Of a stretch of DNA of 40,965 nt, positions 20,530-27,507 are shown one piece after another. Made by a program: the position numbers and the translations under genes. Source of the stretch: Thermodesulfovibrionia bacterium (GTDB lineage Bacteria; Nitrospirota; Thermodesulfovibrionia; UBA6902); NCBI GenBank assembly GCA_945787795.1, contig CALZJD010000005.1, positions 1-40,965 on the forward strand, in the 5' to 3' direction. Every line of letters begins with the position of its first letter. Positions within the stretch are counted from its first letter, which is position 1. A model generated the notes under the pieces. That model was not told the DNA's origin, searched no databases, and saw nothing but the letters and a program-made list of their open reading frames with translations.

Positions 20530-21291
20530 ATGAACGGCTTCATAAAGAAAAACATAATCAAAATTACTGAATCCCACAACAACACTGTTGAAGACGCTGT
20601 TGCGGAAGAAAAGAAAATCAGAATTTCGGTAAACGGCAGGGAAGTTCTGAGTTTATACTGCAGCCCGATTATGGTCAGGGAGCTTGTCGCCGGCCTCTTT
20701 ATGACAGAAGGGATTATCAAAGGAAGCTGGTGTGCCGACCGAATGAGCATTCAGTACGATGAAGATATACTTGTTGATATTCCCGCAGAAGGAGAAGTAT
20801 CTATTGAAGGCAGTGCCCGGACTTCGGGCTGTGTGGGCGGCATTACATTTGACAGGTCTGAATATAGTGAAACAATCGGGGAAGGCATAACGATAGAAAA
20901 AGATGTGCTCAGGGAACTCTTCCATGACTTCCAGAAAAGGTCTGACCTGTATAACACGACCGGATGCATTCATAGCGCTGCTGTGTCAGACGGCAGGCAC
21001 ATCCTTGTTGTTGGAGAAGATATCGGGAGACATAATGCTGTTGACAAGGTCACGGGTTACTGCTTCCTTGAAGAAATCTCGTTACAGGACAAGATAATAC
21101 TGGTAAGCGGAAGGCTTTCATCAGAAATGGCCACCAAGTGCGCCAGGTGGGGGATACCCATAGTCGTAAGCCGTGCGGCCCCTACAGCCCTTGCCATAAA
21201 CATAGCTGAAAAGCGGGGAATCACCATGGTCGGTTTTATGAGAGGGAAAAGGTTAAATATCTATACGCATCCGGAGCGAATTGTCAGATAG
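20530..21291 (+). CDS. fdhD: Formate dehydrogenase accessory sulfurtransferase
   Basis: LVAGLFMTEGII, TSGCVG, TGCIHSAA, EDIGRHNAVDK, SGRLSSEM, SRAAPT, NIYTHPERI. Confidence 0.95.
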   Translation: MNGFIKKNIIKITESHNNTVEDAVAEEKKIRISVNGREVLSLYCSPIMVRELVAGLFMTEGIIKGSWCADRMSIQYDEDILVDIPAEGEVSIEGSARTSGCVGGITFDRSEYSETIGEGITIEKDVLRELFHDFQKRSDLYNTTGCIHSAAVSDGRHILVVGEDIGRHNAVDKVTGYCFLEEISLQDKIILVSGRLSSEMATKCARWGIPIVVSRAAPTALAINIAEKRGITMVGFMRGKRLNIYTHPERIVR

Positions 21292-22140: not shown

Positions 22141-22413
22141 ATGAGAAAACGGCAGAAAATTATTCTTATTTTTTATATGTATATGGTTATTTTATTGGGA
22201 TTTATCTATGTTCCTTATGATGTGTATTACCCTAATGGTGCGAAAAAATTTGTGGGACATCACCTCAGAGTTCGGTTGTTTGAACTCGTTCCATGGGAAA
22301 AGAAGGTATGGGGACAAACGGCTATAGATGCGAATTTGATTATCGCTGAGATATTAGCCATTACTGCTGTTACGGTGGTTATTTTTATTTTATTTAAGAG
22401 AGATGAACCGTAA
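22141..22413 (+). CDS. Small 2-TM hypothetical protein
   Basis: 90 aa; basic N-terminus and two hydrophobic helices. Confidence 0.7.
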   Translation: MRKRQKIILIFYMYMVILLGFIYVPYDVYYPNGAKKFVGHHLRVRLFELVPWEKKVWGQTAIDANLIIAEILAITAVTVVIFILFKRDEP

Positions 22414-22534
22414 TTGATATTATCACATATGCCCGTGCTGCAGCTAATCTATCACTACAATCAACATGGGTATTATTATGGTCATCCAGATCGTGGCTCG
22501 TGGCTTCCACTAATACTTTTTTTACTTTATTCAT
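22394..22534 (-). CDS. Unannotated 46-aa small ORF (possibly a frameshifted small membrane peptide)
   Basis: AAGGAGG 5 nt before ATG 22534; MNKVKKVLVEATSHDLDDHNNTHVDCSDRLAAARAYVIISITVHLS*; lies directly under a sigma-54 promoter. Confidence 0.5.
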   Translation of the reverse strand: MNKVKKVLVEATSHDLDDHNNTHVDCSDRLAAARAYVIISITVHLS

Positions 22535-22570
22535 AGTACCCTCCTTTTTTTACACAAGTAAAATAATATA

Positions 22571-22586
22571 TGCAATTTTGCTACCA
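22571..22586 (-). promoter_or_regulatory. Sigma-54 -24/-12 promoter
   Basis: TGGTAG-CAAAA-TTGCA with exact GG-N10-GC spacing. Confidence 0.75.
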
Positions 22587-22624
22587 GGAGAATCTTAAAG
22601 GTTAAAACGCCTTTTTATCATTAA

Positions 22625-22637
22625 TATCAATAAGTTG
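22625..22637 (+). promoter_or_regulatory. IHF binding site
   Basis: TATCAATAAGTTG fits WATCAANNNNTTR; lies between the promoter and the enhancer. Confidence 0.65.
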
Positions 22638-22673
22638 CCATAATGATATTGATAGTCGTGGTTTATGCTGATA

Positions 22674-22706
22674 TGTGACAATGCACAGAATTGTGCCATT
22701 ATGACA
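22674..22706. promoter_or_regulatory. Tandem enhancer sites for a sigma-54 activator (bEBP)
   Basis: TGTGACAATGCACA and TGTGCCATTATGACA (TGT-N8/9-ACA), about 90-120 bp upstream of the -24 element. Confidence 0.55.
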
Positions 22707-22730
22707 GGCTATTTACATGTAATTTTTAGT

Positions 22731-23537
22731 CTATGAGCAACTGCTGTTCAGACATGATGCTCCGGTACCTCCTGCACATACTTCATCAAACAGTATTTTA
22801 TTTCCCTTTTCAGAAATGCCGAGTGTATGAATCTCCTTCTTCAACATATCACACGTTCCATTTCCACCGAGGTATCCGTTGACTCTGGCAACTGCAGTAG
22901 AGGAGAGCAGTCCTTTAAATGAAGGATATATGGTATTTAATTCCTCCATCAGTCCCCTGTTTCCCCGCAGCATATGCTTTTGATGGTAATCTTCGGCAAG
23001 ATAAAATTCTGTCAATGGCAATATGTCGGTCCTTATCCTTTCTTGTATCGATGAAGCAAGAAGTTCTATGGAATGTTCAGCAATGCTTTTCTGTTTATCA
23101 TCATGGTACAGGATTGCCTTTCTGTACTGCCGTGACCAGGGGGGTGATGTCGGGTCGTGGCTGTCCCAGAATATATCAAGCAACTCTTTATAGGAAAGCA
23201 TTCCCGGGTCGTAATCTATTTGTATCACCTCTGAGTGATTACCCAGATTATGATATGTCGGATGAGCTGACGATCCCCCTGCGTATCCTACACGGGTACG
23301 AACAACTCCGGGCATACTCCCGAACCGGGAGTCAGGACCCCAGAATCACCCCAATGCAAATGTTGCTGTTTCTATTACTGCCGGTATAATTTTATCTATT
23401 AGCGGATGAACTGCATGTATCGAATCCGGATGTTCTGTTTTCATTATGGTATTGCCTCTTTTGTCTTCCATGAGAATCACTACTCCCAGTATAAGGGGTA
23501 ACGATATCAAGGTTATAAGTCTTAATCTGAAGTTCAT
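22731..23537 (-). CDS. msrA: Selenocysteine-containing peptide methionine sulfoxide reductase A with N-terminal membrane anchor (268 aa)
   Basis: ORFs 23346-23537 and 22731-23315 are in one frame: ETATFALG-TGA(23346-23348)-FWGPDSRFGSMPGVVRTRVGYAGG...HSEVIQIDYDP...AEDYHQK. The TGA sits at the catalytic Cys of GCFWG. Confidence 0.92.
23306..23345 (-). promoter_or_regulatory. Bacterial SECIS element
   Basis: Directly 3' of the UGA: UUCUGGG..ACUCCCG-GUU-CGGGAGU..CCCGGAG; the apical loop starts with G, 20 nt from the UGA. Confidence 0.85.
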
Positions 23538-24160
23538 TACATACCCTTCTTTTTTTCCCTCATATCATCAGGCATGGTTTGATGCTGGATATTATCCTTC
23601 ATGTCTTTACTTTCAAATAGCATCAGATATTTCCCGTATCCCTCTTCTTCGAGTTTTTTTACTGGGATGAAGCGCAGAGATGCCGAATTCATACAGTAGC
23701 GAAGTCCGGTAGGTTCAGGACCGTCATCAAACACATGGCCGAGGTGGGAATCTGCATATCTGCTTCGCACTTCTGTCCTTGTCCTGAAAAAGCCTCTGTC
23801 CTCTTTTTCAACTATGTTTTCAGGTTCAAGAGGTCTGGTGAAACTTGGCCAGCCTGTTCCTGACTTATACTTGTCCAGAGAACTGAAGAGAGGTTCTCCT
23901 GAAACGATATCAACATATATCCCCGGTTTTTTATTGTCCCAGTATTCGTTGTCAAAGGCCCGTTCCGTATCATCTTTCTGGGTCACCTTGTATTGCAGCG
24001 GTGTCAGATTTTTCTTTATTTCATCTGGTGAAGGTTTCATGTACGTTTTCTCCGACATTTTCTGTGCAGAAACGTCCATGTCTGAGGTGTATGCATTGGT
24101 CATAGCGATACACAGGAGAACGATCAGCAGTGTATTTATTAAAATTTTCATATTGAACAT
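23537..24160 (-). CDS. msrB: Peptide methionine sulfoxide reductase B with signal peptide
   Basis: [56 protein letters not shown]; RBS GGAGG before ATG 24160; TAATG overlap with msrA. Confidence 0.96.
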
Positions 24161-24189
24161 ATCCACCTCCTGAAATCACCTGTTTGACA

Positions 24190-24218
24190 GGAAAGGTGAG
24201 ACATTGCCCCACCTTCCC
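24190..24218 (-). other. Intercistronic hairpin (no U-tract on the coding strand)
   Basis: GGGAAGGTGGGGC-AAT-GTCTCACCTTTCC between the spondin gene and msrB. Confidence 0.55.
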
Positions 24219-24238
24219 TTTCTCTACTCATATTATTG

Positions 24239-24934
24239 TCAATCATCCTCCTCTTTGTCATCATCATGATAACTGCCAACCCTCTCAATGACTATCCGGG
24301 CAACAGGATTTCTCCAGTCATAAATATTGTCCAGGAGACTTCCTATTCCATGGATTCCCGGGTGGATGTGAACATATCCTTCTCCATCTTCAACACTGAG
24401 GGCATCTCCATCACACACCGGACCGGGGATGTTGGCGCACAATTCATCATTTATCTCAGTTCCGGCGTCGTATGCAGGTGACACATACATTACTGATCTG
24501 TGACCCCTGGGCGCCTTTACGCCATTCAGCGCGAAAAAACCGTCGTTTGTCGGTATCAACATGGCAGCAAGGCTAATATGGCGAAATCCTCCTGTACGTT
24601 CAAGCTTCACCACTGTAGAATCACCGGGCATAAGAAGACCTTCAGATGTTGCTATTTCTGCAACTCTCGGATTGCCTGCCATCATCGTGGATAAAGGCTC
24701 GGTATTTCCTGACTCTGCCAGTATCCCGAGCGACTTGCTTGCGGGCGATCCCGGGGTAAACAGACTGACACCTTTTTTATGGTTCAGTACTATGGTCGGC
24801 GTAAACGTCTGGTTGCTCGTCATATTCGTTATGGTTACTTTATAATAACCTCCATACCTGTCAGCATAACCATTTGTGATGAGTAAAGTTAATGCCATCA
24901 AGCACCCAATAATTATCAATACTTTCTGTTTCAT
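24239..24934 (-). CDS. Secreted spondin_N domain protein
   Basis: Signal peptide; YKVTITN.T..Q.FTP, LAESG, SLAAMLIPTNDGF, AYDAGTE.NDE, VHIHPG, YDWRNPVARI; RBS AAGGAGG. Confidence 0.88.
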   Translation of the reverse strand: MKQKVLIIIGCLMALTLLITNGYADRYGGYYKVTITNMTSNQTFTPTIVLNHKKGVSLFTPGSPASKSLGILAESGNTEPLSTMMAGNPRVAEIATSEGLLMPGDSTVVKLERTGGFRHISLAAMLIPTNDGFFALNGVKAPRGHRSVMYVSPAYDAGTEINDELCANIPGPVCDGDALSVEDGEGYVHIHPGIHGIGSLLDNIYDWRNPVARIVIERVGSYHDDDKEEDD

Positions 24935-25086
24935 TTGTCTCCCTCCTTTACATTCAATATACAGGCGTATTATAAATTAATATTTCAAGACCCCCTTTCA
25001 TTTCATTTGCCTGCTTATCAGGAGATAGTGAACAGTGTCAATACAGAGTCTCTATCCCCTGTTGATTAAGAGGATAACAGGAGAAG

Positions 25087-25126
25087 ATCACGAGTTTATC
25101 ACGAAAATATAACGTTTATGTCACAA
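25087..25126 (-). promoter_or_regulatory. Four OmpR-family direct-repeat half-sites, 11-bp period
   Basis: Plus strand: ATCACG 25087, ATCACG 25098, ATAACG 25109, GTCACA 25120; same motif at 27560/27571. Confidence 0.75.
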
Positions 25127-25132
25127 CAAAAA

Positions 25133-25305
25133 GTTCAACAATTGTTCAAAATAGTTCAAAGTTAGTTCAAGATTGTAATAAACTGACCTGCAACAAGGAG
25201 GCAGGGCATACATTTTGGAATTAATAAATAGGGAAAGAACAATTGTTGAACCACTATTGAACTACTATTGAACCACTTTTGAACTACTATTGAACAATGT
25301 TGAAC
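25133..25305. repeat. Two mutually inverted short-period arrays: GTTCAA x4 and TTGAAC x6
   Basis: GTTCAA at 25133, 25144, 25154, 25165; TTGAAC at 25246, 25257, 25268, 25279, 25290, 25300. Confidence 0.9.
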
Positions 25306-25312
25306 AGTTGTT

Positions 25313-26791
25313 TTATTTATAAACCGGCAGGTGAAAGGTAAATGTAGTCCCTGAATTCTGCACGCTCGTTACCTCGATAGACGTCCCGTGCAATTCCAGG
25401 ATTTTTTTTGTCACGGCAAGACCCAGCCCTGAATGAGAAGACTTGCCCTTTCTGCTTCTGTCAGTCTGATAGAACCGGTCGAATATGCGGGGAAGTGCAT
25501 GCTCAGGTATGCCGCAGCCTGTATCACTTACCTGTACAGTGATTTTTTCCTGATCATGGTCAGTCAGCACGATGCTGATAGATCCTTCTTCAGGTGTGTA
25601 ACGAAGCGCATTGTCCAGCAGGTTTTCCATGACCCGCTCGATCATCGCTATATCAGCATAGGCAAACGGTATTTCCTTTCCGATATTTGTCACGATGTTG
25701 ATCTTCCGTTCCCTGGCGGTTAACGCAAATTTCTGTACGATATCCTGTACCAGCTCACTCAGGCTGAACGGTTCTGCATGTACGACCATGTCATCTGCCT
25801 CAAGTTTGGCAAGTTCAAAAAGATCACTGATTAATTTGCTGAGACGCTCACAATGGCTGACCGCTATTTTTAGATAGTTTCTCCGCTCCTCTGATGACAG
25901 GCTCTCATCTTTTAACAGAAGGGTCTCAATATATCCCTGCATGGTTGCCAGAGGCGTCCGCAGGTCATGTGATACATTTGCTACCAGCTCACGTCTCATT
26001 GCGTCAGACTTCTCCAGTTTATCCATCTGGGAGTTGATTCTTTCTGTCATTTGCCAGAATGTCAGGCCGAGCCTGTCTATTTCATCATGCATGCTCTCAT
26101 GGCCGCTTAACGGTAGATGATGTTCCTGCAGAGGCATGCCGCTTTCATATTTTTCCATAACAGCTGCAAGGCGTTTTAACCGCCGTGTCAGAAATGCAAA
26201 GATAATCAATCCGGCTATCAATGCAACGATAAGGCTTATCGCTATTACCCGGATACTGAGCTGGAGAATATAACTCCCCTGGATTTTCTGAATGATAGTG
26301 TCATATGTCTCACCACCCAGAATTACGTACAGATATCCTTCAAGTCTGTCTTCCGGTTTAATAGGAGCAGCAGTAAAAACCTTTTTCCCGTTTGCATCCC
26401 GCGGATCATCGCCGAGCAGAGGCAGGGGAACCTGCCCGCTGATCATTTGTTTTACAGGCACAAGATCAACTCTCTTACGTTTTACCCTGCCGGGCTCTGC
26501 AGAAAAAGCAAGGATGCTGCCCTCGCGGTCAAGGAGGTAAATCTCAATACTTGGATTTATCACCATGAGCATATGAAATATTTCCTTGAGAGCTTCCTGA
26601 TTGACCTGATTGTCCTGCAGAATAATTTGTTCAGCTACGATGAGACCGGCAAGTTCCCGGTTGAGCTTCTGGTTAACTTCCTGCTGATATTGCTCGGTTG
26701 CATAAACGCTGATAATAATAAAAGAGACCCCTATTAAAAAAAATAATCCGAGCAGCACAAGGGCCAGTTTTGCATACAGTGATCTCAGCAT
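25313..26791 (-). CDS. Sensor histidine kinase (2 TM, periplasmic domain, HAMP, HisKA, HATPase)
   Basis: DEIDRLG (HAMP), NVSHDLRTPL, NLLDNALRYT, DTGCGI, IFDRFY, GLGLAV. Confidence 0.96.
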   Translation of the reverse strand: MLRSLYAKLALVLLGLFFLIGVSFIIISVYATEQYQQEVNQKLNRELAGLIVAEQIILQDNQVNQEALKEIFHMLMVINPSIEIYLLDREGSILAFSAEPGRVKRKRVDLVPVKQMISGQVPLPLLGDDPRDANGKKVFTAAPIKPEDRLEGYLYVILGGETYDTIIQKIQGSYILQLSIRVIAISLIVALIAGLIIFAFLTRRLKRLAAVMEKYESGMPLQEHHLPLSGHESMHDEIDRLGLTFWQMTERINSQMDKLEKSDAMRRELVANVSHDLRTPLATMQGYIETLLLKDESLSSEERRNYLKIAVSHCERLSKLISDLFELAKLEADDMVVHAEPFSLSELVQDIVQKFALTARERKINIVTNIGKEIPFAYADIAMIERVMENLLDNALRYTPEEGSISIVLTDHDQEKITVQVSDTGCGIPEHALPRIFDRFYQTDRSRKGKSSHSGLGLAVTKKILELHGTSIEVTSVQNSGTTFTFHLPVYK

Positions 26792-27507
26792 CAGTCACCT
26801 TCCCGGCTGAAGTCGGCAAATTTATATCCAACTCCCCAGACCGTGAGGATATAGCGCGGCTGGGCCGGGTTTTCTTCTATCTTGGAACGAAGGCGGTTAA
26901 TATGAGAGTTGACGGTATGCTCATACCCTTCATGACTGTATCCCCACACCAGGTCCAGTAATTGCGACCGTGTATAGACCCGTCCCGGATGCTGTGCAAA
27001 ATGTAACAGCAGGTCAAATTCCTTCATCGTTACATCAATCGGTTTGCCATCAAGCGTCACACTCCGCTTTTCAATGTCTATTTCCATATCCCCTGCAAGG
27101 ATATTATCAGGCACCTCTTCAGTTTCATGATTCTTCATCTTGTCCACCCGCCGGATTATTGCTTTTACTCTTGCCATAAGTTCCATAATGCTGAACGGTT
27201 TTGTCACGTAATCATCAGCCCCGATTTCAAGACCGATGACACGGTCCATTTCAGAGGATTTTGAAGTCAGCATCAATATGGGAACATAGGAGGATTTACT
27301 GCGCAGGCGTTTGCAGATTTCAAGGCCGTCAAGACCGGGCAGCATAAGGTCCAGAATGATAAGGTCATACTGGTCAGCTTCTGCCTTTGCAACACCAGAG
27401 ACACCATCAAGCGCAATGTCAACGATAAATGAAAGATCCCTCAGGTGCAGCTCAAGCAGTTGGGCGAGTTCCCTGTTGTCTTCGATGATCAGAATACTTT
27501 TTCCCAT
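26791..27507 (-). CDS. OmpR/PhoB-family response regulator
   Basis: IIED, LDLMLPGLDG, GADDYVTKPF, winged-helix HTVNSHINRLRSKIE..ILTVWGVGYKF. Confidence 0.97.
   Translation of the reverse strand: MGKSILIIEDNRELAQLLELHLRDLSFIVDIALDGVSGVAKAEADQYDLIILDLMLPGLDGLEICKRLRSKSSYVPILMLTSKSSEMDRVIGLEIGADDYVTKPFSIMELMARVKAIIRRVDKMKNHETEEVPDNILAGDMEIDIEKRSVTLDGKPIDVTMKEFDLLLHFAQHPGRVYTRSQLLDLVWGYSHEGYEHTVNSHINRLRSKIEENPAQPRYILTVWGVGYKFADFSREGD

Follow-up and report, generated by a model that had tools for sequence, protein, structure and literature searches.

Methionine sulfoxide reductase A (MsrA) carrying selenocysteine (Sec, U) in a GUFWG/H motif is among the known prokaryotic selenoproteins (2026 review, PMC13188914), and Sec-MsrA has been recorded in Syntrophobacter fumaroxidans, Olavius symbionts and marine metagenomes (PMC1794560, PMC1976440, PMC2398784); since both the review and these older surveys list it, this kind of enzyme is already known. 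The enzyme of Clostridium (Alkaliphilus) oremlandii OhILAs, CoMsrA, natively contains Sec and comprises a catalytic domain at residues 1-144 plus a helical domain at residues 145-209, the latter being absent from other MsrAs and needed to hold the active site (PMC4479559, PMC4333827). CoMsrA has been described as cytoplasmic and free of cysteine (Cys), hence of the 1-Cys type, and as reduced by glutaredoxin and not by thioredoxin; E. coli has served to produce it as a native selenoprotein (PMC4479559). Here we describe an msrA gene on the minus strand of a 40,965-nucleotide stretch of DNA (contig CALZJD010000005.1, assembly GCA_945787795.1; the whole stretch is hereafter called the window) from a Thermodesulfovibrionia bacterium of the Nitrospirota. 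We consider it probable that one functional gene here encodes a Sec-containing MsrA of the same two-domain type, and that the enzyme is exported or membrane-anchored (Table 1).

Translation table 11 breaks the gene into two minus-strand open reading frames (ORFs) that share one frame, the first of 63 aa at 23537..23346 and the second of 194 aa at 23315..22731. With TGA read as U, 23537..22731 translates into 268 residues, of which U64 alone comes from a recoded codon. The DNA around this codon reads TTTGCATTGGGG-TGA-TTCTGGGGT (FALG-U-FWG, TGA at 23348..23346), and the resulting GUFWG motif occupies residues 63-67. An earlier note, made from the letters of the window, had proposed that an ORF caller split one Sec-MsrA gene at a TGA standing exactly at the catalytic Cys of GCFWG; the single 268-codon frame bears out the former point, and agreement of frame, motif and homologue column the latter. 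The note was also right that the downstream ORF has no active site of its own, because its first residue is M75, past GUFWG, which leaves the 194-aa piece without the catalytic residue. The msrA product scores 143 bits against Pfam PF01625 (cut-off 23.7) and 128.3 bits against NCBIfam TIGR00401 (cut-off 108.1), and its residues Y95, E103, Q137, Y138 and H185 are invariant in our family alignment, A1. A further MsrA, of the usual Cys type, is encoded in the same genome (G000:C32:8666-9103) by a 198-codon open frame; it is 39% identical and lacks the N-terminal extension.

Table 1 Features of the Sec-msrA region and its upstream neighbours, in window coordinates.
Feature	Coordinates	Strand	Remarks
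msrA long frame	22731..23537	minus	268 codons including U64; stop TAG 22733..22731
Candidate signal anchor, codons 1-23	23469..23537	minus	MNFRLR followed by 17-residue hydrophobic stretch L7-M23
Shine-Dalgarno-like AAGAGG	23455..23460	minus	10 nt upstream of the M32 ATG
Internal in-frame ATG, M32	23442..23444	minus	Candidate start; 237-residue form without the anchor
MsrA catalytic (PMSR) domain	22962..23369	minus	Residues 57-192; Pfam PMSR E 1.2e-41
UGA, predicted to be read as selenocysteine	23346..23348	minus	Catalytic Cys column of the MsrA GCFWG motif
Two-stem fold, whole	23304..23347	minus	Lower 9-bp stem pairs 23347..23339 with 23312..23304, in this sequence only
Upper SECIS-like hairpin	23316..23332	minus	ACUCCCG-GUU-CGGGAGU; 7 bp, GUU loop, 13 nt past UGA
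C-terminal helical domain and Cys-rich tail	22734..22961	minus	C229, C254, C262, C267
msrB (Cys type)	23537..24160	minus	SelR E 1.3e-47; N-terminal signal peptide
Spondin-domain protein	24239..24934	minus	First gene of cluster; signal peptide; NF038123 E 6.3e-42
Histidine kinase	25313..26791	minus	Upstream, same strand
OmpR-type response regulator	26791..27507	minus	Upstream, same strand

The nearest solved structures are those of CoMsrA (4U66, 7C13 and 4LWJ-4LWM; E 8.6e-57 over residues 56-243), and the aligned stretch extends into the helical domain of CoMsrA, as far as chain residue 195. Like CoMsrA, the window protein would combine Sec in GUFWG with a catalytic and, going by this alignment, a C-terminal helical domain, and CoMsrA residues Tyr47, Glu55, Gln89, Tyr90 and His137 (PMC4333827) correspond to Y95, E103, Q137, Y138 and H185 here; the position of CoMsrA Tyr140 is taken by His188. 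The helical-domain model PF20939 ('Selenoprotein MsrA, helical domain') matches the window tail below its cut-off (18.2 bits, E 0.0022; cut-off 23.7), and several homologues exceed that cut-off. Judged by sequence, the protein belongs to the two-domain 'selenoprotein MsrA' type. It differs from CoMsrA at both ends. CoMsrA has 209 residues and begins 15 residues before Sec, whereas the window protein has 63 residues before Sec, with a 55-residue N-terminal extension that includes the candidate signal anchor. At the C-terminus, four Cys in the arrangement GxC ... VC x7 C x4 C are kept in all four family orthologues, so that the protein is not of the 1-Cys type, whereas CoMsrA has none. The earlier note had pointed to these Cys as possible resolving residues; they may act as such, form structural disulfides or have another role. 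A link between tail Cys and export was considered and rejected: Cys occurs in the last 25 residues of 17 of 52 signal-bearing sequences and of 6 of 18 others. The genomic setting, an operon with a signal-bearing MsrB and a spondin-like protein, also sets the gene apart from that of CoMsrA.

Conservation of the TGA was examined by scanning one genome per species with alignment A1 and keeping the 80 best loci. The catalytic column reads TGA in 70 of these (66 with the strict motif, 4 with a looser one) and TGC or TGT in 9, with one locus unresolved (L027), an exchange between Cys and TGA for which the earlier note had proposed a check. The metagenome-assembled genomes (MAGs) and genomes behind the TGA loci carry labels that include Chloroflexota, Nitrospirota, Desulfobacterota, Actinomycetota and Synergistota; among the sampled loci are L077 from a Syntrophobacter MAG, L060 from an Olavius symbiont and L061 from Desulfosarcina alkanivorans PL12, a cultivable carrier of the gene. 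As with the Sec-MsrAs of the surveys cited above, the family is the same and was found through TGA/Cys exchange together with a hairpin resembling a selenocysteine insertion sequence (SECIS). Among the genomes of 30 relatives, four from the same family (G010, G013, G015, G016) have an orthologue, 52-61% identical and with exactly one TGA each. The closest database proteins are 194-aa pieces that begin MPGVV (94, 89, 79 and 66% identity), and four 63-aa pieces (73-90% identity) all end at FALG; that other assemblies cut the gene at the same codon argues against a sequencing error. No names are recorded for the closest proteins. An Anaerolineae MAG carries a Sec-msrA (L079:3187-3234) with a frameshift a few codons past the UGA (FWGPETPSSGAPLA, then a stop), which is either a pseudogene or an assembly error. 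When contigs from public sequencing runs were aligned to the window, depth peaked at 23284..23397, where contigs of other organisms contribute: several sediment and marine metagenome runs stack there at 85% likeness or above, with flanks that are unlike. The UGA/hairpin region is conserved at the DNA level between organisms to an unusual degree.

The two-stem hairpin that the earlier note had placed right after the TGA is present, with the correction that its upper part begins 13 nt downstream. When the 64 nt that begin with the UGA are folded at minimum energy, the lower 9-bp stem takes in the GA of the UGA itself. We aligned 70 sequences, the window and 69 TGA loci, with L079 excluded because of its frameshift. 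Over these sequences the upper helix is 86.1% paired and shows compensatory changes in three of its seven pairs (C-G/A-U/U-A; U-A/G-C; G-C/A-U), with a covariation of 0.161 against 0.087 in shuffles, none of 500 of which reached 0.161, and at most 0.092 in slid controls in which the partner was moved by 1-3 columns. The lower stem, 70.3% paired, has neither covariation nor a compensatory pair across homologues and was rejected as a conserved element for lack of such a pair. Since the encoded peptide PDSRFGS is itself conserved, coding alone was checked as the cause of the pairing: only 0.6% of synonymous encodings of DSRFGS under the codon usage of the window yield 7 pairs, and the mode is 4. 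Six or seven pairs are formed in 60 of 74 Sec-type loci versus none of nine Cys-type loci, which never exceed five pairs and in six cases have three; the GTT loop is present in 70 of 74 versus 4 of 9. In two Halanaerobiaceae loci with the TGA (L097:3055-3102 and L098:3061-3108) the conserved hairpin is missing, only 0 and 4 of its 7 pairs being formed, so the SECIS there must have another build; the latter encodes a Sec-MsrA fused to MsrB, with 366 codons following the Sec.

Sec machinery, to which the earlier note had looked, was found in the 349-contig assembly of the genome as selA, selB and selD, and selC was found as a 26-nt 3' piece only. On contig C45, selA (621 bits) adjoins selB (354 bits), and selD, divided over two contigs, has an in-frame TGA in GGUAAK; all three exceed curated cut-offs. 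A 6-bp G+C-rich hairpin lies 11 nt past the UGA of selD (L009:1531-1560, contig C194), with a 3-nt loop whose first base is G, a build similar to that of the msrA element. tRNA-Sec scores above the cut-off in three of the four relatives with an orthologue (G016, G015, G013) but not in G010. With the G016 tRNA-Sec as query, 26 nt identical to its 3' end, from the T arm to CCA, were recovered at C181:4319-4344 (L204). Upstream of this piece is unrelated A-rich DNA, and the genes that precede it on C181 encode ParE, a Fic/DOC protein and a nucleotidyltransferase/HepT pair. The piece resembles a terminal repeat left by an island that inserted into selC, in which case the intact selC would lie beyond this 4.9-kb contig. 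Eight loci collected from Rfam tRNA-Sec matches were called by ARAGORN as tRNA-Ser, -Leu, -Arg or -His in seven cases and as nothing in L003.

By its appearance the N-terminal segment of the msrA product is a signal anchor of N-in orientation, and its charge pattern is fitting. The uncharged, mostly hydrophobic stretch L7-M23 is followed by EDKRG, with no small-residue cleavage site seen by eye. Over 15 residues (7-21) its hydropathy peaks at 2.79, whereas 80 mature domains attain 1.53 at most and hence never 2.0. In four close database relatives M1 is retained and the hydrophobic segment differs by conservative substitutions only, and the four family orthologues carry a comparable segment. 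The earlier note's proposal that this segment exports or anchors the enzyme therefore stands as far as its anchor-like character and its conservation in close relatives go, and is qualified by an alternative start, M32, that would give a cytoplasmic form. Its view that an export signal is unusual for Sec-MsrA does not hold beyond a comparison with the characterised enzyme, as a signal-like N-terminus (peak of at least 2.0) is found in 52 of 70 complete Sec-type homologues; a lipobox-like motif is present in at least 16 of the 80 loci. RpoB has its closest named matches in Nitrospirota MAGs (72, 68 and 67% identity). We take these Nitrospirota relatives to be diderms, so that the target compartment would be the periplasm.

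The internal ATG recurs across the family. Start sites were compared by the mean duplex energy with a generic anti-Shine-Dalgarno 9-mer (in kcal/mol). In-frame ATGs 24-45 codons upstream, taken as the best per locus and available in 64 of 83 loci, average -6.85 with 66% at or below -6; far-upstream starts (n=66) average -4.87 with 38%, and in-frame ATGs within the mature domain (n=218) average -2.89 with 11%. Among 54 long, signal-bearing forms, 43 have the internal ATG, 32 of them with an energy of -6 or lower. Short forms have N-terminal extensions of 27-34 codons, which corresponds to the same ATG. In the proteins the signal shows as '[KR]E..M' or 'GG..M', seen repeatedly some 32 residues ahead of Sec; in the DNA this is a Shine-Dalgarno sequence and then an ATG. 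A GGAG-type core lies 2-11 nt before the ATG and occurs in all three codon phases (8, 13 and 9 of 30), which points to a nucleotide signal and not a peptide motif; GGAGG precedes an ATG at -31 in three of the four family orthologues. For the two msrB genes, the Shine-Dalgarno scores of internal starts are moderate only (-6.6 and -5.3).

Several observations count against the reading of this region as a gene for an exported or anchored Sec-MsrA, and we weigh them here with the explanations that compete with it. The fold downstream of the UGA is only moderately unusual (-26.1 kcal/mol, z -2.06; 7 of 200 shuffles equal it), and a comparison of 23150..23450 with Rfam (E up to 10) gave chance matches only (pRNA, SNOR75) and no SECIS family. 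Sec-msrA is missing from all three same-genus genomes among the 30 relatives (G001-G003), no tRNA-Sec passes the cut-off in the closed one of these, G002, and use of Sec within the genus seems patchy. The assembly itself has no complete tRNA-Sec (best Rfam score 37.4 bits against a cut-off of 47; none from ARAGORN on the entire genome); its completeness is, however, 86.8% and its contamination 5.45%, and the tRNA genes in it number only 32, with those for Ile, Thr, Trp and Tyr likewise missing, so that the absence of tRNA-Sec means little. A changed code or a suppressor tRNA that reads UGA as Trp, Gly or Cys would fit this absence as well as the W that some database homologues (P0008, P0012, P0013, P0014, P0019, P0044) show in FALG-W-FWG. 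Yet TGA terminates 11 of the 26 Pfam-supported ORFs in the window and is missing from long ORFs of up to 979 codons, selA, selB and selD are present, the last with an in-frame TGA at a known Sec position, and Trp in place of the catalytic Cys would abolish enzyme activity. We regard such decoding as highly improbable; the W entries are most likely TGA codons translated as Trp by gene callers using another table, and Sec-MsrAs would thus be mis-translated in public data. Equally improbable is that a Cys-type msrA owes its TGA to a nonsense mutation or to a miscalled base, so that inactive fragments only are made. The split made by the gene caller and the fragmented, incomplete assembly would suit a broken gene, as would the finding that no public run holds the exact sequence (none of those listed shares more than 0.09 of sampled words with it, and no RNA run is listed); four runs matched at 85% likeness gave no contig piece that spans the TGA with 31 letters on each side, so the reads are silent on TGA versus TGC in this organism. 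A broken gene would not account for TGA in 70 of 80 related loci and in four family orthologues, for four other assemblies that split the gene at the same place, for a hairpin that rare synonymous codons maintain in the TGA forms alone, or for the retention of every invariant MsrA residue by the two halves. The frame and motif, the conserved TGA and hairpin, the Sec genes and the family to which the protein belongs were all observed, and on these we are confident that the gene encodes a genuine Sec-MsrA.

Where the enzyme resides is the less certain part. The case for export is built from hydropathy and reading by eye, which makes the N-terminal segment a candidate signal, and the homologues were fetched with, and ranked by likeness to, sequences of the exported type, so that the sample is enriched for export signals. 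Within the window no thioredoxin, CcdA or DsbD gene adjoins msrA, and the CcdA of the same genome, used as a tblastn query, matched none of 85 loci. Were M32 (23444..23442, behind AAGAGG) the true start, the product would be a cytoplasmic, 237-residue, CoMsrA-like Sec-MsrA and the upstream codons would not be usefully translated. M32 does coincide with the start of short cytoplasmic homologues, whose 27-34-codon extensions are preceded by stops in L048, L057, L072 and L093; its Shine-Dalgarno duplex (-5.8 kcal/mol) is as good as that of M1 (-5.4); a strong Shine-Dalgarno sequence with an ATG 29-36 codons before the catalytic codon occurs in 26 of the 54 long forms, with peaks at 31 and 33; and the characterised enzyme is cytoplasmic and glutaredoxin-reduced (PMC4479559). 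However, untranslated DNA would be expected to lose an open upstream frame with a charged n-region and hydrophobic stretch, and these are kept in 54 of 80 loci; the lipobox-like motifs and the retention of M1 with its hydrophobic segment in four close relatives point the same way. The M1 ATG moreover overlaps the msrB stop by one base (TAATG), msrB and the spondin-like gene beside it both encode signal peptides, and the genome has its separate 198-codon Cys-type MsrA without such an extension. A purely cytoplasmic enzyme is therefore unlikely to be the whole account, and that the long, exported form is made seems likely from the sequences compared. Three readings remain: the long form only, with the internal motif as a relic or a pause site; the short form only; or both. 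The signal-like open frame in 54 of 80 loci speaks against the second, and conservation of the motif within a poorly conserved linker speaks against a relic. Since most long forms keep an internal Shine-Dalgarno sequence and ATG at the short-form start, two isoforms are possible, and we suggest tentatively, at less than even odds, that one gene makes both an exported or anchored and a cytoplasmic selenoenzyme, with the internal site being the short-form start kept across phyla. Internal starts that drop a signal sequence have been reported from ribosome profiling for E. coli speA, bamA, ivy and yghG (bioRxiv 10.1101/520783). As in these cases, a downstream start would leave part of the Sec-MsrA cytoplasmic; unlike the E. 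coli sites, which were mapped in one species by ribosome profiling, the Sec-msrA site is predicted from sequence and kept across phyla. With two isoforms, the four-Cys tail of this clade would let the exported one recycle without glutaredoxin.

Of the genes upstream, msrB probably starts at the ATG of codon 3 or 6 of its listed ORF, behind AGGAGG, and the spondin-like/msrB/msrA cluster is found whole or in part in three family relatives. A spondin-like gene stands beside Sec-msrA in a Desulfobacteraceae MAG (L082:2091-2729) and at L102:51-707, L103:713-1372 and L105:3048-3674; by tblastn over the 85 loci, MsrB is encoded in 18 (17 besides our own) and a spondin-like protein in 5 (4 besides our own). 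The spondin-domain protein of the window has a C-x7-C pair near its C-terminus. That the two-component genes are linked to the msr genes is only a guess. A scan of 22300..25400 for promoters and terminators gave nothing beyond chance that would define an operon, and the sole minus-strand 'terminator' in this interval belongs to the SECIS region. Elsewhere in the window, an FdhD/NarQ-family gene stands alone at 20530-21291 (+), with no formate dehydrogenase gene among the window ORFs scanned.

Methionine sulfoxide reductase systems outside the cytoplasm include Neisseria PilB (Trx-MsrA-MsrB), Streptococcus pneumoniae MsrAB2 with CcdA and Etrx, and E. coli MsrPQ; they use Cys or molybdenum and are fused to, or encoded beside, a thioredoxin-like or membrane electron donor. 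The arrangement described here would resemble them in bringing MsrA and MsrB activities outside the cytoplasm to repair envelope proteins, and differs from them in its catalytic Sec and in the lack of a donor gene in the cluster. A conserved redox partner next to the gene was sought and rejected on the tblastn search for CcdA and on a Pfam scan (E 1e-8) of 150 of 289 flanking ORFs, covering 24 of 46 signal-type loci, which returned no thioredoxin, DsbD or CcdA; the filter used there keeps the longest ORF and may hide real genes in G+C-rich loci. Elsewhere in the same genome (L114:612-3438, contig C10), a 725-residue DsbD_TM protein is encoded directly upstream of a second signal-bearing MsrB; this protein is a candidate that may provide the electron route for the extracytoplasmic Msr enzymes. 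Beside the exported Sec-msrA of a Dehalococcoidales MAG (L021:2130-2915) and of a Deltaproteobacteria MAG (L051:4214-5257) there is an Oxidored_molyb gene, which we take to be of the family of the periplasmic reductase MsrP.

We infer Sec insertion, export and reductant as follows. Translation from M1 would be coupled to the msrB stop, and the N-terminal signal anchor would direct MsrA across or into the cytoplasmic membrane. At UGA64, SelB with Sec-tRNA(Sec) would bind the G+C-rich, GUU-loop hairpin 13 nt downstream, and selenocysteine would be inserted in place of termination. By analogy with known enzymes, Sec64 would attack methionine-S-sulfoxide and be converted to a selenenic acid, whose resolution may fall to one of the four tail Cys or to an external thiol reductant, itself perhaps supplied through the DsbD-like membrane protein encoded elsewhere in the genome. 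Together with the signal-bearing MsrB, the exported MsrA would repair oxidised methionines of envelope proteins.

In the accessible portions of the four selenoprotein papers (PMC1794560, PMC1976440, PMC2398784, PMC13188914) a signal peptide is not mentioned, and in two of them the periplasm is not mentioned; their supplements may list N-termini. Supplements aside, we found no description in the literature of an exported or anchored Sec-MsrA with a Cys-rich tail, the family itself being known. The closest public entries are fragments of 63 and 194 aa, and others have W at the Sec position; with Sec-MsrA split or mis-translated in protein sets, the repair capacity of these organisms is under-counted. 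To our knowledge, the only Sec-MsrA studied is a cytoplasmic, Cys-free, glutaredoxin-recycled enzyme. Going by predicted N-termini, the exported variant is widespread in public genomes of anaerobes, and the export type of most sampled Sec-MsrAs (52 of 70) raises the question of what recycles such a selenoenzyme in strict anaerobes once it lies beyond the cytoplasm. These findings extend a known family and do not overturn current ideas. The one point that could lead further is the conserved internal start, a testable case of bacterial dual targeting through alternative initiation.

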